Of a DNA stretch of 64,000 nt, positions 23,901 through 64,000 are shown one piece after another. Position 1 is the stretch's first letter; each line of letters opens with the position of its first letter. Source of the stretch: Antedon mediterranea. Taxonomy: Eukaryota > Animalia > Echinodermata. The notes beneath the pieces were generated by a model. That model was not told the origin of the DNA. It did no database searches and saw nothing but the letters and a program-made list of their open reading frames with translations. Location: NCBI RefSeq assembly GCF_964355755.1, contig NC_092670.1, positions 19,144,795 through 19,208,794 of the forward strand. The letters are read 5' to 3'. The translations under genes and the position numbers were made by a program.

Positions 23901-26900
23901 CAAGAAATTTTGTTTTGTGTACATCTGTGTTATAGGGTCCTACTGTCACGATTTTTTTTTGGTTTCGACGCCATCAATATGTAGGCCTACCGAGTGAACA
24001 CATTCTAACTTATCTTGAATCTTGCACATAGGTGGTGGAGCCCGAAAGAAAGGCGGTTCCTTCCAAACAGTATCCGCCAAACATAGGGTACGGTGACTAT
24101 TTGTTCTTATTGTTAAATGCGCATCTTCCCCCATTTGCGCACATTCATAATTTGCTATGTTATATTGCATGTTTTGACATTTTTTTATAATCGTGTTTGT
24201 TCACAGGAGGAGGAAAGCGTGAGAAGGCTATCAAGACTATAAGCGCGGGTCACAGGGTTCGCATGAATTTCATTGCTGCGTGATGAGTGCTCTTTTCTGA
24301 CTGACAAACAATACTCAAAATCTCTTTAATCAGATATATCTACCATGGAATTTTCATTTTTTTTAATTGTTTTACCTGACACAATTTCTGTCTCAGGTTT
24401 TACCAATAAGTCATTTCTACATCTGATCATAGAGACACTATAAGATCTCTATGATCTGATAAAAAATTGGGGTTTTCAATGTTTGATTTTGGCTCCGTTT
24501 GATTTTCAAATTCTTCCTTTCAATAATGATTGGTTCGAAAAATGTCTGATTGTTCTTTGGAATGAAGGGTATTGTTTGTGAATCTTTGTAATCATCACCA
24601 CAATCCCACAATGCATGCTCGTTGGAATTTAAATACAAATCTTTATCTGTTGCATGAGTGCACAACATACAAATAAAAAAAGTTACACATTATATTTTGA
24701 ACGAAATCCTGATTTTATTTATTAAATTATTATATTTTTTAATTAACCATAAGACTATTGAAAACATGTAGGTATTTCTTAAAGTAAGATCAACATTTTT
24801 CTCAATACCAATACAAATATATTCCTTATTTAAAAATGAATAAATCTACTTTTTTTAAAAATGATGGAAAACAAGAACCTTCCATAATTAGACAAAATAA
24901 AAGTAAATACAGACAAATATTCTGACCTTGCTATACTCAACTGTAACAATCATTAAAGAATAGCTTAATACTCTTATACCATCACCATACCATTTTTCCT
25001 ATAAATAGATATGAATAAATACATTTTTAAAAATGACAACATTTTTAATAGTATGGTGCATTCATGTTAAAGAAAAGATGTTTTATTGCTGTAACTAACA
25101 AGCTCCTGTTATATGTTGACATTCTGTAAACATTTGTGTTTTTTTTTAATGTTGCAAGATAAAACAACAAACTAGCGCATAAATTACAAACTAATTATTA
25201 TACCCAATTTTTTAAATTACGCATGATGCATTTTTTGTCCTGCACAGTAGAAGAATAAATTACTTTAAATTAACTTGAAAGAATTTTACAACTTATTTAA
25301 GAGAATAACTTTTGCATGTAGAGATGAAATTTGGATTAATTTGTCTCTCATCTATTCTCAAATTTCAATTATTTATAGATATACTGGTGGCTGTTTAGCA
25401 TTAGTCTTATCTTTGCATTAATATGGCTGAAAAAATTAAAACAAAAATAGCATAGATCCAAATCCCATGCAAAGAAGCTTACGACCAATTTTACAAAATG
25501 TTGACACCGAGTTTTTAGTAATTGTTAATTTCACAGTATTTATGTTTTATATTATATGTATTTATCTATTTATGATAATTGTATATAAATGTGAATTGTA
25601 TTTATGTACTTGTTATCGCTATATTTAAATTCACATGCTCTTCTGTCATCTTGCTTTTAAAAACAAACATCAAATTATTTACTAAAAGCAACACACTAAA
25701 ACAAGGTATGTGAAATTTACAATGACTAAATAAAGAATTTAATCAAAAATATCTTTCTCTATCAGCAATAAGATTCTAATGATATTCAAAATACGTTTCT
25801 GTATCTAAATAAAATAAATATATTTTTTTATTGTTCAATTGCTATTCAAATTTGCGCCTTTGTTATTTTACTTTATTTTGGTGTTAAATTATTATTTCTG
25901 TATTTTCATTTAATGTTTGATTGATTTTCAATGATTTTAATTTGTTTTTGTAAATGCAAGGTGATAGAAGAAACCATATACAAGATACTAACGTCAATTC
26001 CCTAAATTCTGGACACCCTTGCAACGGTCAAAGATGTGCAGGTTTTTGAAAGAAGTTTCAAAATTTGATTTAAAAATATGTTCAGTTTAACAAAAATTCA
26101 AAATATTGTAAAAAGAAAAATGTTCAGTTTTTCAAAAGAAATTTCAACATTTGAATTTCAAAATTATAATTATTATCAAAGATTCTAAATTTGTGAAAAG
26201 CTACAAAACTAAATACAATGATTTGTTAAAAATCATTGTTAAATATATTTAGTGTCTTGTATATGTTTATTCACTTGTTACATTTTTCTTACATTGCTGT
26301 GTGCTTATACAGTGGTTTATTAAATTGTTGATGAAAATAAAAAGTTAAAATTAAATAATAAATAAATAATAATAAATATATATAACCTATAAAATAAGGA
26401 CGGAATATATATAAAAGCAAAAGCTATTAACTAAATGTTTAAAATAATTTTCACATTGCTGTTTACTGCTGTGTTTTTTCCTCAAATATTCAATAAAAAA
26501 ATTTTATTTTAAATAATAATTCAATTTTTATTTTCGAAAAAAAATTTGATTGGATGCAGTGACATTTTATGGATGTTTCAATGACACTACTGTATCTAGA
26601 CTAAAAAACAATTGTGTGCCAAAAGCAGTATTTTATTCTGCCCTTTTGGGGTTGGTTAGATTCAATGTAGTGTACTGAAACATCTCTATAATACATCACA
26701 TAATGTATTCAACTAGATTTTGGGCTGATTATGATAAAATAATAATATAAAGTAATATTAAAATTAATAACCTTGGTATTAATAAAAAATAATACATACT
26801 ATAATCTTCTGCAGTAATACATAATTCTATTTGAAAGCCGCTTTTAATATTTTAAAAAACTAACTATCTGGGTACTGTTGCTATAGGAACAACTGAACCG

Positions 26901-29900
26901 TCTGCTGTCCACACTGTTCAAGACTTCTCCTCACTTTGTCCGCTGTATCATTCCCAATGAGTTCAAGAAACCCGGTCTCATGGACGCCCATCTTGTACTT
27001 CATCAGCTCTCCTGTAATGGTGTGCTTGAGGGTATCCGTATTTGCCGAAAGGGATTCCCCAACAGAATGTCCTTTGCTGACTTTAAACAAAGGTACAGCA
27101 CCAATCATAATTCAGAATGCATCATATTTATAATTTCTTAAATCAGAGAACAAAACACTATCCAACTCAGGCAAAACCTTTTTAAATAAAATAAGGTTTT
27201 TCTTTACAGAAAAAATGGCCTATCTTCATTGTTCATTTTTTTGGGGGACAATACATCTTTAACTACATTTTTGTTTTGTTTTTTTAAACAGATACACAGT
27301 TTTGGCACCAACTGCTGTTCCCGGTGGATTCATGGATAGCCGCAAAGCCTCTGATGCCCTTTTGAAAGCCATCCAACTGGACACAAATGAGTACCGCATG
27401 GGATACACAAAGGTTAGTGTTTTTCAAATTGTCCTCGCCTTTTGTTCACCCTGTCTCACTGAAAACATATTTGTGTCTGTATCTGTGTATGTAGTATCAT
27501 AGTTGTATGATCTCAAACAATACAACTGGTTCAGCAGACCATGTTGTAGATTTTCTAACAGTGAATTTGTTTTTTAAAGGTGTTCTTCCGTGCTGGATGC
27601 CTTGGTGAACTTGAAGATATGCGTGACGAACGTCTTTCTAAGATTGTGTCCATGTTGCAATCTCAGTGCCGTGGATTCATCATGCGCAAAGAGTACAAAA
27701 AGATGCTGGATCAGAGGTATGAATGAAAATAGTTATTATGAACATCATTATTAGAACCATATCTCTATGTTCCTTATGCAATATCAAAATTGTCACTACT
27801 TACTCTTCTCATTCACATAATTATCTTTGCTGCTGTTATCATTCTTATCAGTTAGTATAAATGCCATCATCTATGTTATATTAGTGTTATTAACATCAAT
27901 CAAACAATCACATGTTAACAATCTATTTTCAATTATTGACAGAATTGGCCTTAGCACACTTCAGCGTAACATCCGTAAATACTTGATCCTGAGAAACTGG
28001 CACTGGTGGAGATTGTACACAAAGGTAAGGAACGATGCCATTGAAGGAACCATTGTCATGTTGAAGAGCACGTAATAAATAACTAGGATATCTTGTGAAA
28101 GCTTATTACACTTTCTGTACAACTTTATACATCTCCACTGTATTGCAATTATGAGATATACAATACAACAATTTGTTAATTTTAGGTCAAGCCTCTGCTC
28201 AACGTTGCCCGTGCTGAGGATGAAATGAAGGCCAAAGAGGAAGAGTTACAGAAGTTTAAAGAAAAAGCAGAGAAAGAGGAGAAAGAAAGAATCGTTCTTG
28301 AAGAAAAGAACTCGCAACTGTTGAAAGAGAAGAACGAAATGATGCTCCGACTCCAAAATGTAAGATGCACTCATCAATTTTCTCTCTTTTAAAAAAAAAG
28401 ATACTGACACTCAAACTGCAAGCATGGGCTTTCCTCAGGATATTTCCATTTTATGTTGGTTCGTACTGACTTAAGTGTTTTGGTTTTATGTTGGGATAGG
28501 AACAAGAACAAGGAGGTGATTATGAAGAAACTATCAACAAGTTGAATGCTGTCAAGACTGCTCTAGAAACCAGAATGCAGGTAATTTTTATGGTCATTTT
28601 TAAATTGCAACATTGGTTGCAATCATGCTCATATTTATAATTTATAGGTTAGATTTTTAGTTTGTACGCTGACCATTCATATAGACACTCACACTTATGT
28701 TTTGTCTGTCAATTTACAAGAATTCTTAAGCAAGTTGAAACTAGTTATTGATAATCAATATTCAGATATTCAATTAAAACCATGTTTTTTTAGTTTGTGG
28801 CTGATGCTGAGCTGGTACTTCAAATCTTTTGCATTGTTGTAACACTCCATACTATTTCCATCAATGAGAGTTAGCGTTAAATTGTTTTTACCATGAATAA
28901 TACAACTCGTATTTCTCATTATTTCTTTTTAGGAAATGCAAGAGCGCATTGAAGAAGAAGAGGACAACAACGCAGACATCAGCGCCACCAAGCACAAGCT
29001 AGAGAAGGAATGCTCTGAGCTCAAGAAAGACATTGATGATCTTGAGATCACTTTGGCTAAGGTACTAATGAACTAATCCGCACTTGGTTCCTACCAACAT
29101 GGGTAGCTCAGATGTAAAGCTCTGTCTACACTATCAAACTTTGTGACAAACAAATGTGCTCATTTATGGACATGATGATGTCATATCACTACCATATTTG
29201 GGCACATAACACTTTTTTTGTCAAATTAGTTTGATAGTGTAGACAGAGCATAAGACGTTGAACATGTCACCAGTGAGCTGTCAGAGCTGTTTGTGTTAAT
29301 TATCAAACAGCTCTGAACTTCTCACTGATGTTTGTTCAGAGCTATTTGATTTGCTATCAAACGTTTGTGGTAGTTACAATACAATGATATAAACATAGTC
29401 AATTACTAAATGTTTAAAACCATTGTATTGCAATCTACGTCAGAGTTTGTTGTTAGGAAACTTGGTGCTGCATGATTGTTTTGAGGTGCTTGGCAACTGC
29501 TTTTAATAATGTCTACACAAAAAATATAAGTATTTGATTAATTTGGTTTTCAACAAGAAGAAATACTAAACTTCAAAGCATATACACAACTTAATGCTTT
29601 GTTTTAACCAATGGCATTCAACCAATTAATATCATTACACATTTTGATGGAAATTTAATCACAATTTTTTCAAAGCTACAAGTATTTGAACGTTTTGTTT
29701 TACTAAGTGTGTAGTGTTTTTCTGCTTCTAACTATCTATCTGTCACTTGTTTCATCCTATTCTTTTATTTATTTATCTATCACTTTTTCTCTTGTATTCT
29801 AGTCTGTTATCTCCTCTAATTTCTGCTGCACTTACTCATTACCTCTTGCCTCAATTCTATCTGTGATTTTGTTATACTCTGCATAACAATATAAAACATT

Positions 29901-32900
29901 TTTTTAAATGTAAAAAAAAAATACACATTCAATCGAATTAGGACAGTACCTGGTTCTTCAAAATTTACAATTCTACAGAAAAAATTAAATCAAATAAAAC
30001 TTCAAAGACATTTATAATTACAGTAAGCTTCAACAAAATTAGTTTTCATAAAATGAAGCTTGGAAGGGAACAGGTGTGTTATAAAGTATTTTGTAAAGCA
30101 TCTTATTTCAATTGGATTAGATTATTAGTATCACAGCAGAGTTTTCGCAGGACATTTGATTGATATGATTGCAGGGTATATAATTAAACACAACAGCAAA
30201 TTAATAACACTACTAAAGGACCTCCAATAAAATATAGAATTCTATATTTTGTTGATACCTTTTGTAATCAGCTTTTATTAATTTACACTTTTGTTGTTGT
30301 TGTTTTAGTAAAATGTATGATATCAATTTAATATAGATGACTACCACTTAATATTAAGAAAGTGGTCTATGTTATTATGTGTTATCTGTAAATCATTTAC
30401 CTTAAATTTTATATATTGTGATATAATACAGTAATAATGTTATCATGTCATTATACTCTATGTGGCACATTAAATGCATGTTTGTGATTGGTTGCTAATA
30501 AGGGTCAGTGAGCATGCTCGCTGAGGTTTTGAGACTTTGGTTTTAAGGTCGAGGATGAGAAGAAGGCCAGAGAGGCTCAAATCAAGACTTTGAATGAAGA
30601 CTTAGCCGCTCAGGATGAGAGCATTGCTAAGCTGACCAAGGAGAAGCAAGGTCTCGATGAAAAGAACAAGGTAGGTTTGATTCATGAAATTTAAGATTTT
30701 TCCGGTAAAGAACAAGTTATAAGCATTATATTAGGACTTATGGTAAAATCTCATTGTCTGAACATTTTCTTTATTTTAATATCTTATTTATAAACCTATC
30801 TTTCCTTATGTAGAGAACCGAAGAAGCTCTCCAGGCTGAAGAAGACAAATGCAACCATCTTAACCACCTCAAAGCCAAATTGGAATCAAGCATTGATGAG
30901 GTACCTACATATAATTTGTTGAAACTGTAACTACTGTAGGTAGTAAATCTTTGGCCTATATCCTATATGTTTATATTTTTATTCTAACCACACCAGGAAA
31001 TACTGAACATGTTATTGGTAACATGGAGGTTGACTGTCCTGAATAAGTTCTGCAAATACTAAGTTACATGCACAGTCGATCATGCTCATAGAAACCTTTG
31101 AATTACTAGCTCAGTTACTTGGCCAATAGCCTTTTCCATTCTGTAGTGGATGAAGTATAAATTGAACATTTTGGGTAAAATAGAAAAATGAGTATATTTA
31201 TCATGCTCTTCCTTTCTGATCACATGTCATCAATCCATTAAGCTCTGTCTACACTGTCAAACTAGTTTGACAAAAAAAAATGTGATGTGCCGTAATATAT
31301 GGTAGTAAAATTCTTAAATAAAGAAGTGATATGGCCACATCACATTTTTTCACATAAAATTGGTTAGTGTAGACAGAGCTTTAGATAATATTTGTTGTAC
31401 TGCTACTAATACAAACTTTAATAACAACATTTTAAAATTTCTCTTTTTTTCAAATAGCTTGAGGATAATCTTGAGCATGAGAAGAAGGCCCGCGGTGATG
31501 TAGAGAAGGTTAAGCGTAAGCTTGAAGGAGACCTCAAGATGACTCAGGAAACAGTTGAAGAGCTTGAACGTGCAAAGTCTGGTCTTCAAGAAAACCTCAA
31601 AAAGTAAGTATTGCAGAAAATTTGAATTTTGTACAAAGAAAATAAAGTATACTTTTTAGTCTATGCGTATATTTAATTTTCTACATTTGGTGATGTATCT
31701 TCCTGCTCCTTTTAAGAGCCAGTTTACGACTTTATTTGTTGCACTTTGTGCATGTGCTTTCAATTAGTATGTATCATGTTATAGGTATTTATGTGTTACT
31801 AAGCAATTGTACTATTTTTTATAAATAGGAGAGAATATGAGATCACACAATTGAACAGCCGACTTGAAGATGAGCAAGGTCTAGTTGCCCAACTCCAAAA
31901 GAAGATCAAAGAGCTTCAGGTAGGATCATATTTACTGTTTTTGTTTTTGAAGATGTCAGTCAGAGCTACTCCATTCCTTTTTTGTATGTCTTTAGTCATC
32001 TGGTTTGGCTCTTGTTGCCTCAATATGCTGGTTATACTTTTAACACTTATAGGAGCTTTTTGCAGTGTCAATGAAAACTTGTTGTTGCTTGGATAAATTT
32101 ATATGTCCATATATGGTCATAATTTGACATATATAGTATTAAAGATTCCATAATTGGTCGTTAATAGCTGTAAATCAAGAGTGTTTTCAGTTTATTGTAT
32201 GGTAATTTATGATACGTATGATTCCATTAGTGCTGTACTTCAAAAACATGTTCGTTATTGTACATATAACAAGGAATATAAAATACTTTAGAATAATTTA
32301 TACTACTTTATAGTTTAAGTGTAATTGTTGTATAGGTGTGTCAAGGTTGTTGAATATTTTCTCAATTTTTGAAATCAATGGTAGGAAAGGCCATGATATT
32401 TTGTAGACATATGATTTATACTTTAACCATCTGCTGTAAAATGTGTAGACAAATACTTACATGTACAACCTGACAGTTGATTAGTTTAGTTATAAATAAA
32501 TTAATTAAAAACTCAAATATGGAAAAATATTGCTTAACCTAATTTATCCATTATATATTATCAACATAATTATTATAATGTTGAACAATTTACCCCATGG
32601 CTGTTTTAATTCCTCCATACTTGCAATATGTCAATGAGATTGCCAGTTGCTAGCAAGCCTATATAAGGAAAACCAACACAGACCTTAGAGAGGTCTCACA
32701 TCCCTATGTCATCCAAGGAATTCCACTGACAAACAGTCAGTCCATCCCAGGGCATTCAGCAGAATTTTGTTTAATCATTAATTATTTTTAGATTATTAGG
32801 TAAACAGTTTGATTTATATCTGACATTGAAACTAAAATTATTTTTCAAGTATGAAACTTTAAATGTCAGTTGATTAACGCTGTAATGAATTATCCTGAAC

Positions 32901-35900
32901 TGATTAAAATATAGCATATTAATTATTGAAAGCAATTTTTTATTTCAAAATTTGCTTGACTTTGTTTACTTATAATTATAAATATTAGGCATATTTTTAA
33001 TTATTGACATTTCTAAAATTAACTATAACTTAGAAACAAACTGGAAAAATCTTAAATCCGTCAGCACATTCTATTATATCTGTAATTAATTATTAATGTT
33101 ATAAATAATACATATTATTTTATTTTACAATTTTATTTTAATTTCAAAATTTGCTTGACTTTATTTACTTATAATAATAAATATTGGGCATATTTTTAAA
33201 TATTGAAATTTCTAAAATTAAGAAAAACTTTAGAAACAAACTTGAAAAATTTAAATCTGTCAGCACATGCCTTTATATCTGTAATTAAAGAAAATTATCT
33301 AATTTGGGACCGACCACAAATATTCCCACTAACCACATTCCTTATCAATATCACCATACACTTGTCCATAGCAATTATCAATAGGTACCGTAAGTTATGC
33401 TTGTATAAACCAATTAGTGGAATTGAATAACAGCATAACGGTATCACAGAAGTTATGACATCACAACTTCAGACTTCTCAAGTTACTCAATAACATAGTA
33501 TTTCTAAATTTATCGTGCTAAGCATTGAAACGATAAGACCATTTTTGGATAGCTATTATGCCAGAATGGTTTACTTTGAGGCTCTATATTTACAAAAAGA
33601 CATGTGTTGACGTGTAACTTAACGCTTGTGATTTGGGCGGACTATTAAAAATCTGGCATAAAATATTTGACAGTCTTGATTTGGTTTGTGGTGCTGATAG
33701 CGTCGACATCGGTAGTGGTTAACTCACTGCTTGCATTTTTACAAACTCTTGCAACTATTTTATTTACTTTGGATTTCCTATTTGAAATTACTAATTGATT
33801 CAATTGAGGAATTACATTTTTAAAACTGGCTCACTCACGGATTAAAATGTATAGCGGTGGGGATGACTACTTTCTTAGGAGGCGACTGGTATAAGTAATA
33901 TTTTTATCTAACTTTCTTTTTATATAGTACTACTGTACTTAGATTTTGTATTACTAAAATTATTTTTGCATGAATTATGAAAATTTTACAAATTCGTCAT
34001 CTCTTTCTGCTTTTGTTTACAAAATTAAATTTTGTAGATAATTGGTAATTAATTAGTGACTTATTAGTCTAATAATTAGTTATTCATTTATTTGTTATTC
34101 ATCTATTTACTCAATCATCACGTTAATATAATCAAACAGCTTTAAATTTAAGACACAATCTTAAAAACAAATTGAAACTGTTATTCCAATGAATTATTGT
34201 ATTTAATGCTAGGTTCTGTGTCATCAATGTGTTTAATTAAGAGAATCAAGCATAATATATTTAATCTATGACTACTTATTATCTTATGACATAATTTTAT
34301 CACCGACATTCTTGTCATGTTTGTGACTGCATTTCCTCAATTTAGGATGTTTTTAAAGGCGACAGTTATGTTTATTTCTCAATGTCTTGTCTCATACAGA
34401 CATTCCTTTCTCAGCTGTCTAACAGTACTGAAATATTTTTAGGTGTTTTTTCTTAACCATCTCCCATCCAACAAATTAGGTTTGTCATTAGAGTTTATTA
34501 GCTAAAAATAAATATGGTACTATACTATTCTATTTAGTTTGTGATTGATAAACAATAATTTTTTATTTACTAGCTAAACTACCCTATTTACCATACTGTA
34601 CACAGTACAATACCTTTATTTCCATCAGTTCACTCAAGCATGATAAACTAGCCAATCAGATTAGTGATTACTTAATATTGCCAAATAACCAATCAGAGAA
34701 CAGGGAAGTTACAAACTTTCTGACCAATCAAAGATTGATATACTATATAGATATTTTGTATAGGTTGTTACATTTTTTAATCAGCTGATCATGAAAAGGT
34801 TAATGGCCCAATTGATATAGATGCCAACTTAATTTATGAATGGGTTATAGAATGGAATGGTTGACACACATTTTACTACTATTTGGAAATCAGTTGTGTG
34901 GTTGTCAAAGTCTGTTCTTTGGCATACAACCAGAATGTAGGCTTACTAGCTCTAAATGTATTCTTTGGCAAAACATCAATTGTCTGCCTTAGTAGTCCTA
35001 ATTGTATTCATTAAAAAACTTTAAAAGCATGAGATAACTAGATTTAAAAATTGGAAAATTATATAGCAAAGTTGAGCAGAGAAAAGTTTATGAACAAATT
35101 TTATTTACTTTAGCCATTTACTGTAGAAAGGTAAATTAATAGAATCATCCCCTACATTAATACCATAAGTAAAATGAAAATAGTTACTTAAATTACATGT
35201 CAGATATCAGCACCATGTCTATTAAGTGTTTATGTTATTTGAAGAATGTTGAAATATATTTTTGTTTAATAAGCAAATATGAGCCCAATATTTCTGACTC
35301 ATCTGGAAGATGCTAGATTAACTCAAACCAACTCCATTTATGAACCCTACAACGCATACTGACCACATTGGGCAATCCTTGAGATATGCATACAGCCATT
35401 ATTTTTACCTGCATGAGATATGCAACAAATCTTTAAACTATTTGTGACCGGTTTTTTTTTCTTACTGTAGACACCAGTTATAGAAATAAGTACATTTTCT
35501 ATAGGCCTTTAGTTTATCTTTAAATGTGTCCAGTCAAGCATTCCAATGGTGTTTAGTAACATATTATAAATTAAATCAATTAAGTATCTTAATTAGTTGA
35601 CTATTAAGTGTCAAGTGTAAATACCTGAGAATTAGTAAAGTATAACTGTTATAGTTTGAGTGTAGGCCTAAGTTATTTTTAGATATTAACGATAGTTATA
35701 CATAGTTTGAATGGTAACTATAATTAAGATTTTCTATGGTAGACAGATGTATAGAAAAAAGAATGGCCTGTAATTTGTTAGGTAACATTACTGTCAAATA
35801 AAGTTCAAGTCAGGGGTAAAATTCAATTGGAATGATTAACAACATATCTGTCTGTGCTACCATCTTTAGAATAATAAGGCAGTCAGCGACGAGTTCAACC

Positions 35901-38900
35901 TATGCATGCCAGGATAGGGTCAGTCCTAGCCATCTTAGGTACATGCATTCCAATACCAAATAAGCATTGCATAGATGACACCATCAGTTTCAGTCAATCA
36001 ACCAAATAGATACAGAATTAACACGATTGGCCGATTGCCTTGATGACATCATCATCACCACACTTTTAGCCTATCAATCAATTATCCAGAATTGGTGGAG
36101 TGTGTGGTAGAAGTCCATTAATACAGTTGGAGATTTACGACAGGGGGCGGGCCAGCATGTGACCAGACTTAATGAATGCTTATACAGCATAGTCTCTTCA
36201 GTCAGTTAGCTCAGTGCAATCTCCTGAAGTGGTACGTACCACTGTCTCTTCTAAGTGCAATATTATTGGATAGAGGGTGGCACCAGTCTTTTCTGATACG
36301 CTCTTCAGCTTAGACCAAATATTCTCCTGGACTATTACTCTTGGACTACAAAGCTAGGCCCTGTTCTACTTGGAATACTCACTGTGAATTTAAATACCCA
36401 AAATGGAAAGTAGCAGTATGATAAAATCATCTAAAACAACAAAGAAGATGGTGTCCTCAACTTCAGGGACACAATCCTTGGATTATTCTAAAAATCTGGA
36501 CACGCATGTCAACTACCAAAAACTAAGTGCCAAGTCAAGGAAGCTCATTCGTCGTAGCTATGAGATGGGCGATTGTTTTGTTGGAGCAAAGGAACTATAC
36601 CAAGTAGGCAACTATATTGATTCCGCATGCATTTACTACTGATGTTGTAAGTAGAAGTAAGAAAGACTAGGCTAGGCCCAAGCTTGTTCTGATAGATCTG
36701 AGTGCACTAGGGTAAAAATCAAGTTGTGGGTCTACAAAATAGAACCAGGTATAGATCGTAATGAATATATTTCATAACGACTAAAATGCAGGTTATCCAG
36801 AATAGGACAGGTTTATCTAAAATGCTAGTTTGAAAATCCAGATAGAAAAGAAATTTTTTTTTTTTTGATCCAATAGATCTAAAGTACTAAAAATGGTACA
36901 ACAACATTTCGCAAACTTTCAGTCAGTTTGCTTTCTCATGTAGACTGTTTAATCCAGATAATTATCATCTAATCATCAAGAAATGTCCTGTTAAATATTC
37001 AGCAACTGTTCAAGCTTCCATATCAAAACTATGATTTTAATTAAATAATATCTTGTACTGGTTGCATGTATATCTTTATATTGAATATTCTATACCAACA
37101 GTTATAGAAACTATTAGATACAAAGGGATGAACTTGTGTGACCTATTTCATTACCCCCCTTTCTGTTGACCTTCTTGTCTCCCTGCCACTGTCTCAACCA
37201 GTAGTTCTATTTTGATATTGACCTGAAGGTCAGAATAATTAATGTATAATTTGATTGATATGTGATACTCCCTTCAACACCTGCTCTGAGAATTTCTACT
37301 TGCCAATGATACAAATTCTTCTCCTATTATGGATGGTTGGGAGACATCACAATGGTCACATAGCAATACATTTTCATTTAGAATGTGCTGTATCTATATC
37401 TTTGGTGTGTTAGCTGTAGGGTATATCTAATACATAGATATTGGGCTAAAGAAAGTAGCCTGAAGGTAAAAGAAGCTAGGATAAATAAAGCTGAGAACAC
37501 TCATGGGAAAAAATGTTTAGATGAATATCAGATCAGTTAACCAGTCGAAAATTCAATTAATATAAATACAAACATTCTATTAGCAAACTTATTCATCCTC
37601 TACCTGGAAATCTGAATAATTTCACACAGTGTTAGGATAATTAAGCTTAAGTGAACTAATTGTCACAAAATGTCATTATTATGAATGACTTACTTACACA
37701 TTTGTTTTTGTAAATAAATATTGTTATTATTTTTTTGTTTTTTTTTGCTTGGGTTTTTAATCAATTAAATACCACATTTAATGTTACTATTAAATTTGTC
37801 AGAATTGCAAATAATTCTTTTACATCCTATTTTTATTTATTTTTTTTTGGTATTAAATGTACTGTAAGTTTAATTGTTGAGATTCTTTAAATTATGTATT
37901 GTTTTATTTATGTAGTGTTTTATTATTATTTAGATTAAATTTAGAAGTAAAAAATTATCAATTTAAACTTAGTTTTGAAGTAAGTTTCATGTACGATTAA
38001 TATTTCAAATGAAAGTTTATTGTACTAATGTAATCTAATCATTTTACTTTAGTAACTAATTACTCTGTGTCTAGAAAAAAAATTAAGGATTTTATCAATC
38101 AATTACAATAATAGTTGCTGCAGCAAATTGTAAATACATACACACAAACCGGGACACAAACTGTATATTCAAGTATTTAATCATTGTAATTATTATATAT
38201 AATTAATCACATTAGTTGATTATTACATTGTAACTAAAGTTTTGTTTATTTTTTAGGCTCGCATTGAAGAATTAGAAGAAGAGTTGGATGCAGAAAGACA
38301 AGCTCGTACCAAGGTATGTTATCAAAAATCTTTTTAGAAAAAGTTGTATTAAAATACATTATGTCAAAGTGGAAAAAAGGTATATTCCTTCAAAGTCAAA
38401 TAATAACTAATTGGTAATAAAGAATGTTATGTTCTAATTACATCTGACTCTTCTGTCAATTGGACTTTCTGGAACTGCTATTAGACTGTCAAATCAATTT
38501 ATTTTCATTACTAATAAATCCTATCCAGGAATGCCTGCCCTCTCCAGGGATCTATTTACTTATTGGACTCTACTCTGGTATACTATAAAGAATGTTCGCA
38601 TTCCAACCATACTATTCATTTTTCTATTACACTGTAGTATGCAGTGTATTGTAGTTTGTATTGAATATTATATACTAGGTAATTACTTCATTATATTACA
38701 GAGCAATAGTACAATTTATTTGTAATATACTTATATATAATAAAATGAAAATAATATACTGTAATATATTTATACACTGTTATATTATAAATAGGTCGAG
38801 AAACAGCGAACAGAGCTGAGCCATGAATTGGAAGACCTCAGTGAGCGTCTTGAAGAGCAGGGAGGTGCCACCGCTGTCCAAATTGACTTGAACAAGAAGC

Positions 38901-41900
38901 GTGAGTCCGAGATCTCCAAGATGAAGCGTGAACTTGAGGATGCACACATGCAAAGTGAAGCCACATCCCAGGCTCTGCGCAAGAAACATCAAGATGCAGT
39001 AGCCGAGCTGAGTGAGCAGGTAGATGCCCTCAACCGTACTAAATCCAAGTAAGTAACTTTGCGAAAAATATATAAATTATGGTTTATTATATGCATTGTA
39101 CCCGAAAAAATAAAGATGAATAAAATGAAACTTTTAAAAAACAATTTTTTAGTTTTAATAAAGTTATTCACTTTTAGGAACAAGTTTAAAACAAAATTCT
39201 CACAAGAATCAGACAGAATAAATGGTTAAATTTAACCAAAAGCCCAGATAATGGGCTTTAAAATTCACAATTGTTCTTTAAATTACTAAATTAAATAAAG
39301 TTTAGAGTGTTGACTTATCAAGAACCGTGCACATGTTTGTTCTATACACATCATGAATGAGTTTCTTCTATTTACCATTCAGGATTGACAAAGAGCGCCA
39401 GAATCTTAAGATGGATATTGATGACCTCGTCACAACCGTAGAAGGCCTCCAGAAATCCAAGAACAACGCAGAGAAATTATCTCACCAACTTGAGAGCCAG
39501 TTGAACGAGGCTAATGGCCGCGCTGATGATCTCTCCCGTTCCATTGCTGAGCTGAATAACCACAAGCAGCGAATGACAAACGAAAACGCTGATCTTCTCC
39601 GTCAACTTGAAGAGAGCGAGAACGGCCTTAGCCACATGGGTAAACAAAAGAGCCAGTTGGGATCACAAATTGATGAGCTTAGACGACAACTTGATGAAGA
39701 GTCAAGAGTAAGTTTTCTTTTTGGAGTTGACAATTAATACCATATACAACAATTGTAATATATAAATTTAAGTATATTCAAAGCATGCTCGTTGAGCTTG
39801 TGCACTCTTTGTGTTCATAATCAGTGTACCATGTCCCGCATACCTGGCTCAGCCTATATATTGTGCCAGTTCTGCGGTACATTTCATTTCGAAACCTGAG
39901 CTGCACTGACGAGATCTAATAAAATCGAAACAGTACTGTCTGCAGATTGGATAAATTTAAGTATATATTTTTATTAAGAATTACTTTTGTAAGGCAATAA
40001 TATGAATAATTTTTTGTTTTGCAGGCTAAGTCACAATGCATGTCCCAAATCAAGAATCTCAATGCTGAATGCGATCAGCTCCGTGACCAGGCTGAAGAGG
40101 AAGCAGAGGGCCGTGCAGAGGTTCAACGTCTTCTTGGAAAAGCCAACGCTGAGATCCAAGCCATGCGTGCTAAATATGAAGGAGATCACATTGCTCGCGC
40201 TGAGGAACTTGAAGAAGCCAGAAGGAGATTGCAGATCAAACTGACTGAACTTGAAGACCAGCTTCAAAATGCTCTTTCCAAGAACTCCACACTTGAGAAA
40301 ACTAAACAACGTCTCTCTGCTGAGATTGAGGATCTTCTCTTGGAAGTTGAGAGAGTATGTAACTTTTTATATACTATATAAATCTTATCTTTATCACTAT
40401 CTTTTTCAAAATTGAAAATTGTATTAATTAAATATATTTATTTTAGGCCAACAGCATGGTCAGTGCTCTTGAGAAGAAGCAGAAGAAATTCGACCAATTC
40501 CAGGCCGAATGGAAGGCAAAGGTAGATGAAGTAACTGTCGAGCTTGAGATTTCTCAGAAGGAGGCTCGCTCATACTCTGCAGAACTCTTTAAATTCAAAG
40601 GATTCTATGAGGAAACACTTGAAAGCATTGAAACACTCAAGCGCGAGAACAAGAACTTGTCGGGTAAGCTTCTAGCTTTCAACTGGTTTGCATGGGCATT
40701 ACTAAGGGGTTCTTTTAAAAATTTGCGTAAAACTCTTACCAATCCTTTGTATTCAAGTTAAGTTCAATACATTCGACTAATAAATGCAATGCATTTGACT
40801 TAAGTTAAAATTTATTGCACAAAATAAAAGCATAATGAAATAATTATTTATCTGCAGATGAAATCCACGACCTTACTGATCAGCTCGGAGAAGGTGGAAA
40901 GAGCATTCATGAGCTTGACAAAATCCGCCGCCGACTTGAGATGGAAAAGGAAGAACTCCAAACCACCATCGATGAGGTTGAATCTCAACTTGAACAAGAA
41001 GAGAGCAAGGTTGTCCGCTACCAACTTGAGATCACCCAAGTCAAAGCTGACATTGAGCGCCGTTTGTCAGAAAAGGATGAAGAGTTTGAAGTTGTCAGGT
41101 TAGCAATTCATTTTACTTGAAAACTCTTACTTTAAAATTTGTTAAATTATTTTCTTTAGTTTAAAACTATTTTATTTTATATATCTACAATTCAATACTA
41201 TTATGTTGAAACAGGAAGAGCCATGCCCGTGAGATCGAATCATTGACTGCAACTCTTGAATCTGAGACTCGTCAACGCAATGAGGCCATGAAACTGAAGA
41301 AGAAACTTGAATCAGAGGTTAATGAATTAGAGATCCAACTTGACCACACTAACAAGAACCTTGCTGAAGCACTTAAGAACAACAAGAGACTCCAAGGATC
41401 ACTCAAGGTATCTATTTATGCTGATAATCTAATCTTTTCCTAAGCTATATGTACGTAGCCATGTGATTCTAACATACTATCCATAGTAAGTCAGTCATAG
41501 TCAAAGAAGATGGACAACTATGATGATGATGATGATTCATTTATACATACTTGGTTACATGATATAAGAGAGAACAGCGGGTTATCAATTATTGTTATTT
41601 CTCACTTTTATTTAATTTATGTTTTGTTTTATGTAAAAGGGTCCTGCAAAAACAGACTTGTAAACTTCTTTATGCAGGATCATTGCCATCAATTATATAC
41701 TGAATATACTGTAATTATAAACGATGACTAAATAAATCTGAATTGAATTGTTATTTTTAGGATCTCCAAGCCCAATTAGATGATGAGATTCGTGCACGCG
41801 ACGAGCTCCGTGATCAATACCAACTGACTGAGCGCAGATGCAACATGCTCTCCACTGAACTGGAAGAGCTCCGCAGTCAATTGGAGCAATCTGAGAGAAT

Positions 41901-44900
41901 GCGCCGATCTGCAGAGGGCGAGCTATCTGATGCTAACGACCGCAACGGAGAGCTTGGAGCTCAGAACCACTCCCTCGCTGGCCAAAAGAGACGGTTGGAG
42001 CAAGAATTGCTTAGTGCACGTGCAGAGGCTGATGAGGCTTCTGCTGAGGCTAGAGCCAATGATGATAGAGCCAAGAAAGCAGTTAGTGATGTAAGTAGTG
42101 TATCGATTACTCTAATAATTCCATCGTTTCTTACTGCAAATTTCCCTGTACTCTCCTAATTAAAATTGTACAATAGAAATAAGGTGTTTAATCCTCATCT
42201 TTTTTTATTGGTTACACACTGCTTACTGTCTGGTGTGGAAATCATTGTTGTTAAACAGTTACATTAGCCCTGACATAATGCTCTTTAAAAACATTATTTT
42301 AACAATCGTTTTTATAGGCCACACGCCTTGCAGAAGAGCTCCGCCATGAACAAGATCAATATGCAGTTAGTGAGAAGAACCGCAAGGTGTTGGAGGTAAC
42401 TGTTAAGGAGTTGCAAGTCCGTATTGAGGAAGCCGAAGCCCTTGGAATCAAGGCTGCTAGACGCCAAATGCAGAAACTTGAAGTCAGGGTATGTTACCTA
42501 GAAATATATTTTTTATGAATAAATCTTTTACAGGTTAAACAATAGACTATTATTTCTCATTGTAACGATTGTTTAAATGTTTAAATACTCACTTGTTCTT
42601 TTACAGATACGTGAATTGGAGCAAGAACTTGATGGAGAACAACGCCGCCGTTGTGATATTGACAAAAACATGCGCAAGGGAGAACGCCGCATCAAGGAAT
42701 TGAACATGATCATTGAAGATGAACACAAAGTCCAACAACACATGCAAGAGACTGTTGAAAAATGGACAATGAAGTGTAAGACACTGAAGAAGCAAACTGA
42801 GGAACTTGTAAGTTTAACATCATTAAGCTCTGTCTACACTATCACACTAATGTGATGTGTCAAAATATGGTAGTGATATACCAAAATATGTTAGTGATAT
42901 GACATCATCATATCCATATATGGGCACATCACATTAAATTTTGATAGTGTAGGCAGAGCCTTAAGTTGTTTAGACTTGGGAACTCTAGAGTAACATGTAC
43001 GCTGGGGGTGAAAAGAACGTCTACGTCTGTGTCTGCCAGCTCCATATATTGATATATTTCTTTCCTCAACCATGATAGGATATTGCAATATTCCTTCAAA
43101 TAATATTACTGTAATTTCAAAGGACAATCTTCTGTACACCAAAGAAGTTATTTACTAATGTTGTTTTTTTCTTATATTCTTGCAGGAAGAGCATGCCAAC
43201 GGCAACTTGTCTAAATTCAAGCGTGCCCAGACTGAGCTGGAAGAAGCTGAAGAACGTGCTGACATCGCCGAAAGTGCCCTTCAGAAGCTCCGTGCAAGAC
43301 ATCGCAGTGCCATGACACAGCGCACCACTACCACGGTAGAGTCAGACGCTGATTCTGAATCTGAAACCGAAGATTTCGATTTTGAATCAGAATATCACCT
43401 CATAACCACCTCTGTTTCACGTGACCGCCGCTTGCAACGCATGGCTGTAAACACTCGCGATAATCTCAGTTTGTCGACCAAAGGCATTTTATCACGATTA
43501 GACTTAAAAGTCGATAATGATCTTCTTAGTAGTATCGAATCTAAATTAGCAGCAAGCCCCACAAGGCCTGTTATAAATACTTTAAAAAGTCTTTCATTAG
43601 ACGACCGAGCAGGAAAATTGGACACTAGTATATCAGTGACTAAGTCATCAGAAACTGATGACGTATCAACAGCTACTGATGAAGCTCCAAAATTGCCCCC
43701 TACGGAAAGCATTCCACAAGTAGAAACATCTGAAGTTAAACAAGAGGCAGTTGCCTCATCCACTGAACAGTCTGAAAAAACATCAGATGTTTTACCGTCA
43801 GAATCTTCTGACCCTGCCAAATAAATGTCAATTTCATTTATTTATACAAAATTTTCCAACCTTTAAATCAATGAACATTTTATGTATTTTGTTTCTAAAT
43901 TTTGGTTTGAATTGAAATTTTTTACAATTCGATGTATAAATTGAGATTGTCTGTTTTCAGTTCGACATGCGCGCACAACCTTTGCGTTATCACTGCTTTT
44001 TTATTTCTCTTACACCAACAAAATAGTGCATGATTAACAATTTAGGCCCAGTTATATCATTTTCATATCTTAATATATTAATTTTCATTATTCATTACTA
44101 ACTTCAGCTTAAAAAGAGCACCTTTTTTTCACTATTCTAACATTCCCATCTCTTTGTGTGATTAATATTATTTTAGTTTCAACCTTTTTAAAAATTACCT
44201 TTTTACCACCAAAAACATATTTATACCTCTTTTTATACATTTATACAAAAATATTAGCACTCACTTATATCAACAGAAAAGAACAGTTGAGACAATTTTA
44301 TTGGGAGAAAATTATGAATGGTTACCAGGCCAAATCTTTAATTAAAGTTATTTCTTTTTTTTTACAAAAACGAATCAATTAATCAATCAATCATTTCTGT
44401 AGATTTTTCTGTAATGTAAAAAAAACCCAAAAAATCAAATCTATCTGTAAGATAGTCTGCTATTTATTTGTGCATTAGTTAGCTTGGTCTGGTATTGGCA
44501 TGGTGTGGAAACTCATTGATTTGCGGTGATCGCTCCAGCGCACGATCCCCTTACACAATCCCCTTCAATGCAAAATGATTGAGGTATATTATGACGTGAG
44601 ATTCTGTACATAAAAGAATTTAAGCTGTTGTAGTCAAAAGAAAAGAGAAACAAATTTGAACAAATATTGGTCTCTTTTCAGTTGATATTAGTTTTTTAAA
44701 AAACCATTTGCCGTGGTTACATATATTCTTTGCCCGTCCTTATCCTCCAACTCGCTATGATTTTGAAGTTATGGATCTAATTTTGTACGCACTTTTTAAC
44801 ACATAACTTTAACATCCTACGATGTTGGCAGATCTTGATGGCCATGTTTGTGGTGTCTTGGCAGTTATAGTAAGTAGAAAAAAAATCCATTGTGACAATG

Positions 44901-47847
44901 TCACATGAACTGCCTTAAGTGTTCATGCAAATTTATGTAAATTAGTTTATTCTGCAACTGGTTGCATATGTTCTCAAATTCATCCTTTTTGTTCTGTTCT
45001 TATCTTTGTATACAGAAATAGGTTACGTCCTGGCTTTAGAAATTTCAAGCGTCCTCCCTACAACTATCTCTTTTTAAAAATAGGCTCTAGTGGTCTTTCT
45101 AATTCTCCTCACTCTAATACCTCTGATGTGTAATATCAAAGTGGCTCTAATTTAAAGTTGCAATACTTCTTTAAATATTAAAATCCAAATTCTTAGGAAT
45201 AATAAGAATTAATGAATTAATGTAAAAGATTATTCATTTTAAAATAGAAAAGCAACATTAGTCATTTTAAACATTAGTCTTTCTAAACTCTTTGGCTTTT
45301 TTTGGTTTGCCAAATCTTTTGTTGTCAATTAATTTACTTAATGTTGTTTTTTCCGTTGCTCACTTTCTACCATTCTGAAAGTCATAAATGAATAATCTCC
45401 TAGTCTCTATTGTACAGACTTCCAATAGTTTCTCCTAGTCTCTAGTGTACAGACTTCCAACAGTTTTAGGTCATTGGATGAGAGATAAAGCTGGATTTTA
45501 TCCTCAAATAGATTAAGAGACTCTTTGGAGTAATAAGACAAGATTTTCAAGCGACAAGATTTTCAAACTAAAAATTTATCTATCTTGCCTGCAAAATGCA
45601 TTTATTAATTTAGGTGATTGGTAAAAGTTTGAAATTAAAATGACTAAAAACTGTTATTTTAGAAAATTGGACATAAACTTAGGAAGTAGATAATAGACAT
45701 TTTTCCAATTTAAACGTCCATTTATAATGGTGGTCTCATAGCCGCATTATGGTGCTCTTTATTATTCAAATTGTTAATGTTTGTTGTGCCCAGTTAAAAC
45801 TGTAAATAAAATTGATTTGATGTGCTTGGAAGTTCTGTCTGTTTGTGCTCATTTTTTGTCGGCCAATCAAAGCAGAGGATGACAGAAACAGACAAGAATC
45901 CGGCCATCTTGTCTTCAACAACTGCAATTCCAAAATTTTACAAAAAGCTGTTACAGGAAAGAAAGCGATAAAGTATAATGTTGCGTTATATGCATATGTT
46001 TATTTAAGCTTTTTTAAGGATTACCTGTTAGGAAGTGGAACTTATTCAATCCGGTATTCCTCTGTATATTTTTAGAAAAAAATTGCCAAATAATCTTTTA
46101 TAATATATCAATTTTAAACAATTTATAATTTTTCTAATTTGAGACTATCAACAAATTAATTTAAAGAAAGATAATATATTTGTCCCATCTTACAAGTGAA
46201 TCTAGTAACTTGTCTAAACTAAACGTAAAATATAACTTCTCTAACTGCTTACTATGAATAACATTTTAAATATCAGATGAGAATAAGCCACTATATTAGT
46301 ATTCCTAAATAGTTTAACATAAATAATTATATCAGTAGAAAAACGAGCTGATAATGTTAGACACGATGATGTTACATTTTGAGATGTGGTGAGAACTACT
46401 AAAATACTAGATAATTGCAGTGAACAAAATGAAAACAATTTGGATTGACAATTAAGTTTCTAAATAGACCTTTTCTGTTCCTACATCATATAATAAAAAA
46501 GCCCTGCTATAATATTGCTTAGTGGAAAGGAGACTTCAACTTGAGCAAAAATTATTATCTTATTATTACCTACCTTTTCTATTTTAACCTCTTTTCAAAG
46601 AGGTCATTTTCAAAGAATGATGGGATAGTCAACAACTGACACAATGACATTGTTGGGTAGATGCTCAAGCAATGTTTATGATTAAATTACTCCCATCTCT
46701 TTAGTGCCTCACTTTTTTCAAAATCTTGAATCCACCACACCTATTTTGTTATTTTTCTCTTTTACCGAAGAAGTAGATCGATAATTGCATGGTGTCAAAA
46801 GTGGCCTGTTCCATCATTTCATTGCTTATTCATACCCTCTATCATTAACCAATCAAATCTTGTGTTGTAAACTGGTAAGCTATTCTACTGTCTGCATCCA
46901 TTTTGTTACTGTTTTCCTTCTACAGAAAACTGGTAATACCACCATCACCACCACCACCAAATCCAGCAAAAAGTGAACTCCTGAAAAATGATCCGACTTC
47001 ATTTTAGTTTTTTTCTGGTAAATGTTTACCCATTTCTTCTTAGCATGCTGCTTGTTCTATCTTTCTGTATGTTTTTGTTTGTATCTGTTCATTCTGTCTT
47101 CATTTAATATGGTTCTTGTACCAAGAGGTCTGCTGATTGCATTCCAAACTTTACTTTCATTTTTGCAATATATATCTTCTACTTTAAAAAAAATCTAATA
47201 GACTGTAGATACAACTTTTTAAATGTAAACTTTTTGTAATTCTCAAAATTTTAACTTTTTTTAAAGTAATGCATTTTTTTTAAATTAAATTTTTACTCAT
47301 TTAAAAGTATTTCTTTCCAATATAGTTACCGTACGACAAGAGTTTTAAAAACTTTATTTCAATTTTTCTAAACCTAAATTATTTATTTATTATCTTTGAT
47401 ACAATGATCCAAAAGAAATATTTTAAAAACTATTTTTCTAAATGTGTTTGCAGTGATTAGTTTAGTATAGTATTAGCATTTAGTTACATAGGGAAAAATT
47501 AAGAAAATTTATGACCTAAAATGAAACAAAAAAGTTAATATAGTTTACTATTTCCACAATAAAGACAATAACTTATTTAAGTACAGCAATTCGCTTAATA
47601 CTGTTTACTGATTAAATCCAACCGCATGTTTTCAAGCACATAAATTACTGGAAATAAATTTCAAATTGAACCCTGACACCATGTCAAAGGTTGCAACACT
47701 TTTGAGTGTTAATTATAATTATGTTTTTGGTTACAGATTAGTCCAAGCTATTCGTCATTTAGATCTTATTCAACAAGTAGTAGTGATCCTCACGATCAAA
47801 TATCAAACGGAAACGATTACAAACATGATGAATTCGAAGAAGAATAG
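2904..47847 (+). CDS. MYH: Myosin II heavy chain, striated-muscle type (multi-exon, ~1,940-2,090 aa depending on isoform)
   Basis: Frame-consistent GT-AG coding exons: 2904-3083, 3407-3550, 8462-8618, 11094-11121, 12315-12420 (P-loop GESGAGKT), [14752-14853 | 14938-15027] (switch I NSSRF), 16832-16895, 17105-17203, 17408-17511, 17899-18037, 18309-18427, 18758-18907 (switch II DIAGFE), 19371-19541 (relay), 19878-20066, 20413-20539, (23211-23219), [24032-24087 | 24207-24256] (loop 2), 26887-27092 ([16 protein letters not shown]), 27292-27412, 27580-27716, 27943-28024 (IQ motifs), 28186-28359 (VKPLL head-rod junction), 28500-28580, 28933-29061, 30548-30670, 30814-30900, 31458-31603, 31829-31919, 38257-38313, 38795-39048, 39383-39707, 40025-40354, 40447-40663, 40858-41098, 41215-41407, 41761-42090, 42318-42488, 42607-42807, 43186-43335 (or to 43824), then terminal 46926-46976 or 47737-47847. 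Confidence 0.97.
3642..3967 (-). mobile_element. tRNA-derived SINE with Deu/Nin-type central domain
   Basis: Minus strand reads ggtgagtgagTGGCCGAGCGGttaag (A box)...GGTTCGAGGC (B box), then ctcggataaggactataaaccgtaggtcc...gtgcactttaaaagaacc...gagtagggggttaccccggtg. This resembles the DeuSINE/Nin domain as recalled from memory. Ends in a short (TCAA)n-like tail. Confidence 0.75.
4944..5001. promoter_or_regulatory. Candidate intronic muscle enhancer (MCAT + E-box + CArG)
   Basis: GGAATG (TEAD/MCAT) at 4944-4949, CAGCTG E-box at 4975-4980 and a perfect CArG CCTTATATGG at 4992-5001 lie within 60 bp in an early myosin intron. Confidence 0.45.
9390..10422. mobile_element. Degenerate non-autonomous DNA transposon (Harbinger-like termini) containing an 85-bp tandem repeat
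   Basis: Left end gggcccgttcggacgggactgaaa is imperfectly complementary to right end tttcaatcgccgtacgaacacggtc, with TAT on both flanks. The interior is GC-richer than the host intron. Confidence 0.45.
9821..10079. repeat. 85-bp tandem repeat, ~3 copies
   Basis: Unit gttcggctcgcacgataaatacacgtggtgatttttacaagaggggtacagtgcgtgtacattaaatggaatttccacaacaata starts at 9880, 9965 and 10050, with an internally deleted copy at 9821. Confidence 0.9.
13747..13880. mobile_element. ~135-bp MITE family A, copy 1
   Basis: TIRs agctctgtctacactatcaaact...agtttgatagtgtagacagagct, flanked by TA. Confidence 0.85.
14752..14853 (+). CDS. MYH: Myosin mutually exclusive exon A (end of loop 1 to switch I): [34 protein letters not shown]
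   Basis: CAG acceptor, GTAAGT donor, phase 0-0, homologous to 14938-15027. Confidence 0.9.
14938..15027 (+). CDS. MYH: Myosin mutually exclusive exon B (end of loop 1 to switch I): [30 protein letters not shown]
   Basis: TAG acceptor, GTAAGT donor, phase 0-0, 84 nt downstream of exon A. Confidence 0.92.
20111..20253. mobile_element. MITE family A, copy 2
   Basis: ctttgtctacactatcaaact...agtttgatagtgtggacagag; carries CCATATATGG at 20161-20170. Confidence 0.8.
20628..20728. mobile_element. MITE family A, copy 3 (internally deleted)
   Basis: gctctgtctacactatcaaa...agtgtagacagagct. Confidence 0.8.
22058..22212. mobile_element. Small degenerate inverted-repeat element (MITE-like)
   Basis: aagcttggttgttactaggatgcaatgcaa...aaacgcaacg is imperfectly complementary to cgttgcgttt...ttgcgtcctggtgggacccaagttt. 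Confidence 0.5.
22689..22931. repeat. Degenerate ~30-bp tandem repeat (taaaacccagtagggcctac core), ~8 copies
   Basis: Recurrent (a/g)cccagtagggccta motif with short AT-rich spacers. Confidence 0.85.
23211..23219 (+). CDS. MYH: 9-nt myosin loop-2 microexon (adds three residues, G-K-Q-S/R junction)
   Basis: Branch point GCTAAT, long polypyrimidine tract, CAG|GAAAACAAA|GTAAGT. Phase 1-1 and frame-preserving between 20539 and 24032/24207. Confidence 0.7.
24032..24087 (+). CDS. MYH: Myosin loop-2 mutually exclusive exon A: (G)[18 protein letters not shown]
   Basis: TAG acceptor, AGG|GTACGG donor, phase 1-0, canonical [10 protein letters not shown] loop-2 motif. Confidence 0.92.
24207..24256 (+). 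CDS. MYH: Myosin loop-2 mutually exclusive exon B: (G)[16 protein letters not shown]
   Basis: CAG acceptor, AGG|GTTCGC donor, same phases (1-0) as exon A, homologous T-[VI]-S-A-x-H-R end. Confidence 0.8.
29118..29249. mobile_element. MITE family A, copy 4
   Basis: agctctgtctacactatcaaact...agtttgatagtgtagacagagc; carries CCATATTTGG at 29192-29201. Confidence 0.85.
31241..31380. mobile_element. MITE family A, copy 5
   Basis: agctctgtctacactgtcaaact...agtgtagacagagct. Confidence 0.85.
32942..33288. repeat. ~200-bp tandem duplication (2 diverged copies)
   Basis: atttcaaaatttgcttgacttt...gtcagcacat...tatatctgtaattaa at 32942-33089 and again at 33141-33288. Confidence 0.85.
33847..33888 (+). 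CDS. MYH: Probable internal alternative first coding exon ([14 protein letters not shown]) for a headless myosin-rod isoform
   Basis: AAAATG start and CTG|GTATAA phase-0 donor matching the phase-0 acceptor at 38257. Upstream CArG at 33539-33548, GC box at 33635-33640 and TATTAAAAA at 33643-33651. Confidence 0.5.
36025..36402 (+). promoter_or_regulatory. Candidate internal promoter / 5' UTR of the headless myosin-rod isoform
   Basis: ATTGG boxes (36026-36030, ~36091), GC box GGGGGCGGG (36143-36151) and Inr-like TCAGTCAGTT (~36198). Locally GC-richer than the surrounding intron. Confidence 0.5.
36403..36603 (+). CDS. MYH: Internal alternative first coding exon (67 aa, Ser/Thr/Lys-rich) for a catchin/MRP-like headless myosin-rod protein
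   Basis: [25 protein letters not shown]...GAKELYQ has a strong AAAATGG context and an in-frame TAA 12 nt upstream. The CAA|GTAGGC phase-0 donor is in frame with rod exon 38257 ([17 protein letters not shown]). Confidence 0.78.
42826..42960. mobile_element. MITE family A, copy 6
   Basis: agctctgtctacactatcacact...tttgatagtgtaggcagagcc. Confidence 0.8.
43336..43824 (+). CDS. MYH: Read-through alternative myosin tail (162-aa acidic, Ser/Thr-rich non-helical tailpiece)
   Basis: The ORF stays open for 486 nt past the ACG|GTAGAG donor at 43335/43336 in AT-rich DNA, with coding-like composition; stop TAA at 43822-43824. Confidence 0.7.
46926..46976 (+). CDS. MYH: Alternative myosin C-terminal exon: [16 protein letters not shown]
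   Basis: Polypyrimidine tract plus CAG, phase 0, with a donor CTG|GTAAAT at 47017/47018 after the stop. Confidence 0.72.
   Translation, partial: KTGNTTITTTTKSSKK
47737..47847 (+). CDS. MYH: Distal terminal myosin exon: [36 protein letters not shown]
   Basis: CAG acceptor, phase 0, Ser-rich tailpiece ending in acidic residues as in many invertebrate myosin tails. AATAAA signals follow (e.g. 47892, 48924). Confidence 0.78.
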   Translation: MSPSYSSFRSYSTSSSDPHDQISNGNDYKHDEFEEE

Positions 47848-63505: not shown

Positions 63506-64000
63506 CTGCGAATAAAATGAGAGTGTGTATATTCAGTTTGTCCCATAGAAATAAACATATATATATCAGCCATCGATTATAGTGTATGGTAACCAGAACA
63601 TTAAAAATAGAAATGGATACAATCAACACCATCATCTCTACTCATCATACCATCCATGATCATACCCACTTTCCTTAATTAAATCATAAATGGAATGTGG
63701 TACACCTCACTCCTGTCAGTGTCAGTTTATTAATTAATAACCAATAATTATCTATCTCTATAGAATAGATTGATTGTCAATCAATTATTATAATTGCTAT
63801 GTAATCTTGTTATAATGTATTTTACATTATAATACATTATTAAAGCCAATTTATCTGCAATTTCCGGAAAATAAACCTTTAGATAAACACATGTGAACCA
63901 TGAAGAATGATGAACAAAAAAATAAACAACCAGGTGAACTTTGACACAACATCCAGGTCTTATAATTCAATGGGTGAGTTCAGGTTATACAAGACATACA

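Follow-up and report, generated by a model that had tools for sequence, protein, structure and literature searches.

Exon 36403–36603 of the window is very probably the crinoid homologue of the mollusc catchin (myorod) exon. By window, we mean the entire 64,000-nucleotide stretch of Antedon mediterranea DNA that was analysed. The exon sits in an intron of a myosin heavy chain (Mhc) gene. It is likely transcribed from an internal muscle promoter and spliced to the rod exon at 38257, which would yield a predicted 906-residue rod without motor or S2. Conservation of a block at the end of the exon, the position of the splice junction and RNA contigs all point to this interpretation. An earlier note, made from the letters of the window, had proposed that an exon within an intron provides the start of a headless, paramyosin-sized rod, and that the animal was possibly a deuterostome. 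The proposal stands. The host is a crinoid, and the exon is both conserved in relatives and transcribed.

The intronic exon and its predicted product

The host is a striated-type Mhc gene. We mapped RefSeq protein P0002 (XP_071962722.1, Antedon mediterranea) to the window and placed 1935 of its 1937 residues. One rod exon of the window is 100% identical to the RefSeq protein of this species. In a phylogenetic tree, the Mhc rod encoded by the window groups with the Mhc of Patiria and Ptychodera (100/99). The RefSeq cluster of the host gene holds three isoforms, all full-length, and no headless form. Automatic annotations of other species may include the short headless form. Coordinates of the relevant features are listed in Table 1.

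Table 1. Features of the window that bear on the headless rod
Feature	Position	Strand	Details
Striated-type myosin heavy chain gene (host)	2904..47017	+	Coding sequence opens at ATG 2904 and runs to the 46926 tail exon; P0002 mapped exon by exon
Largest Mhc intron	31920..38256	+	6337 nt; phase 0; precedes Mhc residue 1099 (P0002 mapping)
Stretch under one X1 contig	35870..36603	+	Contig of 794 nt (30 + 734 + 30); AG acceptor 35870 to donor 36603
Conserved non-coding 24-mer (CATTCCA and CCAAATAAGC)	35946..35969	+	22/24 identical to L001 491–514
Likely start-site region	36191..36220	+	Words AGTCTCTTCAG and TCAGTGCAAT common to L001; putative start site
Catchin-type N-terminal coding exon	36403..36603	+	67 aa
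Shared rod exons (n = 11)	38257..43335	+	823 aa; Mhc 1099–1921; joints spliced in the RNA run only
Tail exon and start of 3' UTR	46926..47017	+	Yields the 906-aa form; basis: P0002 end, RNA loose end at 43335, joint 47017>47737

The reading frame of the exon opens with AAAATGG. An in-frame TAA begins 12 nt upstream and the frame ends at a phase-0 donor (CAA/GTAGGC, slash at the boundary). The receiving rod exon has the acceptor ttttttag/GCT. All coordinates given in the earlier note for the intron, open reading frame, start context, upstream stop, donor and acceptor were reproduced. Residues 1–40 are variable and rich in Ser, Thr and Lys. Residues 41–67 (36523–36603) form the conserved catchin block, which includes Ser52. 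The exon matches no family in Pfam. AlphaFold2 modelled the 67-mer with low confidence (mean pLDDT 60.8), placing helices at 43–55 and 58–65 after an unstructured N-terminal part.

Together, the 67 exon-encoded residues, 823 rod residues and a 16-residue tail predict a product of 906 aa and 104.9 kDa. Residues 68–906 are identical to residues 1099–1937 of P0002. A length of 906–926 aa had been anticipated. The lower value holds, via the 46926 tail, and joining of 43335 to 46926 is supported by an RNA loose end at 43335 and by RefSeq. The 926-aa isoform was rejected; the joint it requires (43335>47737) has no support among the joints listed, and joint 47017>47737 lies downstream of the 46926 tail exon, within the 3' UTR. 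An alternative tail at 45016, from RefSeq P0013, would give an 891-aa headless form. RNA contig 43306–46913 represents a retained intron that reads past the last rod exon, with a 1052-aa headless form as a possible result. The read-through at 43336–43825 encodes an acidic, Ser/Thr-rich tail of 162 residues.

The size of the product raises the matter of paramyosin. The same protein could be the long-reported echinoderm 'paramyosin'. Ambulacrarians would then have no separate paramyosin gene, and the headless rod would form the core of the thick filament. We regard this as plausible, if somewhat doubtful. The headless rod does have the size and register of paramyosin (P0130). However, a sea cucumber annotation lists one paramyosin, undetected in the body wall (as given in PMC7599334), and in molluscs catchin is described as a surface component of filaments whose core is true paramyosin (PMC4410989, PMC12040844). 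Our search of the literature for the distribution of paramyosin in deuterostome genomes found nothing decisive. The N-terminus itself had been likened to a paramyosin headpiece. This likeness was not borne out: the 27 residues at the junction score -24 against the paramyosin-type protein P0130.

Other features of the locus were recorded. Motor-domain exons at 14761–14850 and 14938–15027 (…EAFGNAK…) are duplicated in tandem and appear to be mutually exclusive; P0002 of RefSeq contains the second. Two loop-2 exons (~24030–24085 and 24207–24257) are mutually exclusive, with RefSeq isoforms P0012 and P0002 using one each. Both neighbouring genes lie on the minus strand. One, at 51184–52503, belongs to the Snf7 family and is presumably CHMP6-like. 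The other, at ~57000–63576, is a MutL-family gene that we take to be PMS2-like. Tandem arrays occupy 53566–54536 (a 20-nt unit repeated 49 times) and 59932–60637 (37 perfectly identical copies of a 19-nt unit). Copies of a dispersed, short, high-copy repeat are found at ~29115–29250, 31238–31385 and 42816–42935.

Related loci, transcription and the likely start site

We searched 1.84 billion proteins with the 67-mer using phmmer. Five matches were obtained at E<=1e-3, and four of these, all from genomic contigs, are homologues (E 4e-9 to 4e-6). The fifth, P0167, is a repeat protein and was discarded as spurious. Each homologue matches up to L[YF][EQ] and then continues with VG, which corresponds to the GT donor; the donor codon is the same as in Antedon. 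When longer proteins containing the 67-mer were sought by word index, none of 17 candidates qualified. A search for short rod proteins revealed no echinoderm headless isoform among the 120 listed of 742 matches, for which the best listed identity was 48%.

A scan of metagenome contigs gave 53 pattern matches, one of which was confirmed. This locus, L001, consists of an ATG, 67 codons, a GTAGGC donor, an intron, an ARIEELEEE exon and the next rod exon. The 67-codon exon occupies the same Mhc intron as its Antedon counterpart. The rod exons of L001 are 78% identical to those of Antedon, 74% to Ptychodera, 71% to Patiria and 58–69% to the other myosins tried. Hence, L001 is likely to derive from another ambulacrarian. 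Over the last 31 codons, comparison with Antedon identified 9 identical, 13 synonymous and 9 residue-changing codons. The differences by codon position number 8, 6 and 19 for first, second and third positions, respectively. The exon had been expected to recur in relatives and it does so, in four homologues with the same donor and in L001, as a 67-codon version ahead of the same rod exon.

To assess transcription, three of five runs (X1, X2 and X5) were aligned over 28100–48000. Across introns of the rod or the UTR, run X1 contained 10 GT..AG joints; DNA runs X2 and X5 had none of them. Hence, X1 was judged to be spliced RNA, although none of the runs is recorded as such. The RNA signal consists of contigs from this one run of one study. 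An X1 contig over the exon fits 35868–36603 and ends exactly on the donor base. The 30 loose letters beyond it were not counted as a bridge. The X1 rod contig starts exactly at 38257, 55 letters ahead of the 38311 joint. Contig ends at 36603 and 38257 are the pattern expected of a 31-mer graph if two exons enter acceptor 38257. We consider splicing of the exon to 38257 likely. Depth in X1 was 3768–6521 for the rod, ~1280–1500 (back-calculated) for exons found only in full-length myosin, 756 for the exon and ~5 for neighbouring intron contigs; these values are consistent with an additional source of rod transcripts. They were given no weight, however, since contigs are unsuited to ranking gene parts and 3' bias confounds the comparison.

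The 5' end of the exon contig carries 28–30 loose letters at the AG acceptor 35870. Hence, some RNA enters this stretch from an upstream exon. It follows that 35870–36603 might be an internal exon, in a message that starts further upstream, either at a small exon near 33.8 kb or at the main promoter. Consistent with this, the 30 + 734 + 30 nt contig begins at an AG acceptor, its 2-base overhang suits an upstream exon with CAG as its last bases, such as the one that ends at 31919, and an RNA contig of depth 135 is present at 33845. Even so, we judge an internal exon unlikely. On entry from 31919 the reading frame would stop after 15 codons, and the 33888 donor (CTG/GT) does not fit the 2-base overhang. 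Furthermore, eight ATGs lie between 35870 and 36176, but none from 36176 to 36403. Hence, an efficient message should start 3' of 36176. A conserved, promoter-like 24-mer also lies inside 35870–36603.

The 24-mer is located ~450–530 nt 5' of the ATG, in the stretch covered by the RNA contig that starts at 35870. Its alignment to L001 scores 38, compared with a maximum of 32 for 300 shuffles and 20–27 for 11 intron tiles without it. L001 and the intron share 45 plus-strand and 35 minus-strand words of 9–11 letters, mostly AT-rich chance matches; only the 24-mer passed this control. We take CATTCCA and CCAAATAAGC to be MCAT/TEAD-like and CArG-like muscle elements. The 24-mer is likely a muscle promoter module. 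The GC box named in the earlier note has no aligned counterpart in L001. We propose that an internal muscle promoter, behind the MCAT/CArG-like module, would drive transcription of the headless form from ~36190–36215. The earlier note had placed the start near 36200.

Two further observations concern RNA from this intron. First, splicing of 31919 to 35870, the acceptor found at the 5' end of the exon contig, would truncate myosin behind S2 and append 15 residues (an HMM-like product or an NMD target). Second, the X1 contig of depth 135 covers 33845, in the region 33817–33894. Here, ATG 33847 opens 14 codons that are followed by a phase-0 GT. A GC box and a TATA-like word lie upstream of this ATG, near 33635–33650, and a 13-mer within 33817–33894 is the reverse complement of L001 550–562. 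The region is a possible second internal first exon, which would give a minimal rod of ~853 aa.

Homology with the mollusc catchin exon

Six mollusc catchin exons, aligned in Fig S3 of Kollmar and Hatje 2014 (PMC3912159), share a 27-residue end block, LSA[KR]S[KR]..R...G.K.L.., that is followed directly by ARIEEL. In the same figure, mollusc catchin joins the rod at a junction equivalent to intron 31920..38256. The intron phase is likewise shared. Residues 41–67 of P0001 align with the block without gaps, and the 27-residue spacing to ARIEEL is the same. Counted by eye in three of the six rows of the figure, identities over the 27 residues number 9 for Mytilus, 11 for Crassostrea and 12 for Biomphalaria (33–44%). 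Most remaining block residues, also compared by eye with these three species, are conservative changes. The conserved G, K and L positions stand outside the basic motif. In the Mytilus row we counted a head of 156 residues, with Thr141 at block position 12; this corresponds to Ser52 of Antedon. Thr141 is described as the MLCK phosphorylation site of mussel myorod (PMC4410989, PMC12040844). Ser52 is invariant in all six rows of our alignment A1. Because the block aligns gap-free at the same junction, with Ser52 at the position of Thr141, we conclude that the exon is a homologue of catchin and no mere look-alike. The earlier note had drawn an analogy with catchin, which understated a relationship that extends to sequence and position.

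Protein P0039 provides a further comparison. Its head, of 172 residues, meets the rod precisely at residue 1099. The last 27 residues of this head align with the exon block without gaps (BLOSUM62 score of 51), and 0 of 100,000 shuffles scored as high. The next best of 127,840 27-mers from the window scored 27 against the P0039 block. The upstream Mhc exon scores -23 against the block. Hence, the catchin-type exon is not a duplicated rod exon. P0039, P0109 and P0140 are headless proteins in which the motif is joined to the rod as uninterrupted sequence. P0140 opens with the 13 C-terminal residues of the block (0 of 20,000 shuffles as high when compared with P0165). In the tree, P0039 and P0109 group with mollusc-type Mhc (98/97) on a long branch, and they perhaps represent a dedicated gene; no placement in the tree was obtained for P0140. 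The long branches of P0039, P0109 and P0140 suggest stand-alone catchin genes outside molluscs. A profile built from ambulacrarian-type blocks and run on 168 proteins recovered P0039 only at E 9e-4 and P0109 at 0.14. A search of the ESM Atlas with residues 70–200 of P0039 was uninformative, returning only rod or paramyosin-like clusters (top 0.90).

A second catchin block, RDYRG..HP, is present in P0039 and in molluscs (PMC3912159, Fig S3) and absent from P0001, L001 and P0163–P0166. We view this as a shortened head. In the sections of PMC3912159, PMC4410989 and PMC12040844 that deal with catchin, it is not described as a defining loss.

Convergence would require the exon to have arisen independently in ambulacrarians, at a convenient phase-0 intron, with its likeness to catchin due to a shared basic kinase motif. 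The match is short, head length and the upstream block differ, and Drosophila Mrp and Lottia Mhc8 indicate that headless rods have originated repeatedly (PMC3912159). However, the intron is the same, the 27-residue spacing to the junction is exact, and G, K and L are conserved beyond the basic motif. Hence, convergence is very improbable. Least credible of all is that the stretch is a poison exon or noise that merely truncates or degrades Mhc transcripts, its frame untranslated; 31919>35870 splicing is possible and would bring a stop 15 codons later, but protein-level conservation, third-position bias and the conserved start and donor speak strongly against it.

Age, possible function and comparison with known systems

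With the Antedon exon, the catchin family gains a deuterostome member. The same exon, junction and motif occur in molluscs, in another lophotrochozoan-type protein and in ambulacrarian-type loci. Hence, the isoform would date to the protostome–deuterostome ancestor, where a homologue in a crinoid and other non-mollusc sequences would push its origin. Catchin is likely far older than molluscs. By contrast, published accounts restrict myorod to molluscan catch muscle, where it is a current candidate for the catch linkage (PMC4410989, PMC12040844). A homologue outside molluscs would separate the core role of catchin from bivalve catch. PMC3912159 covers Mhc genes of sea urchin and acorn worm; in its cited sections, catchin exons are named for molluscs only. 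Our literature search found no report of myorod or catchin in echinoderms, although subscription papers and the sequence supplement of PMC3912159 may contain one. The finding also bears on the identity of echinoderm and hemichordate 'paramyosin'. Tentatively, catchin could go back to the bilaterian ancestor as a thick-filament protein that ambulacrarians have retained. The 'paramyosin' isolated from muscle of sea lily, sea urchin, sea cucumber and acorn worm would then be this Mhc product, and duplication of a catchin-type transcription unit may have given rise to paramyosin itself.

All functional steps for the Antedon protein are borrowed from in-vitro work with mussel. In mussel myorod, phosphorylation-dependent binding of the head to actin or myosin has been reported in vitro (PMC4410989, PMC12040844). 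By analogy, the headless rod would dimerise and co-assemble with full-length myosin into thick filaments, via the identical light meromyosin. This could add headless bulk to the filaments. The short, basic head may project and bind actin or myosin, switched by phosphorylation of Ser52.

As known for catchin and myorod (Yamada et al. 2000, as described in PMC3912159, PMC4410989 and PMC12040844), the Antedon rod would be an alternative muscle product of Mhc. Both have a Ser/Thr-rich head and a C-terminal part identical to the rod of their own Mhc. Rod and tail after ARIEEL comprise 839 aa in Antedon and 830 in mollusc catchin, and neither protein has a motor or S2 (PMC3912159). The head is shorter, at 67 aa, compared with 156 in Mytilus and ~120–210 residues for catchin heads in general (PMC3912159, Fig S3). 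Antedon has Ser52, in an RRS context, where mussel catchin has Thr. The host of the Antedon exon is a deuterostome, whereas catchin is from molluscs.

Drosophila Mrp is also a headless Mhc isoform made from an internal start. The analogy drawn with it in the earlier note is less apt, since Mrp starts ~260 residues earlier. It is ~260 residues longer, retains S2 and has an N-terminus that is not conserved (PMC3912159). The start of Mrp is the first exon after the light-chain-binding domain; the Antedon form starts at Mhc residue 1099, without S2, from a conserved exon. Lottia Mhc8, which is rod-only, starts at the same position but is a separate gene without a catchin exon (PMC3912159). Paramyosin is similar in size and its rod begins in the same register (P0130). 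However, it is the product of a separate gene with a rod 39% identical, whereas the headless rod of Antedon consists of myosin's own exons.
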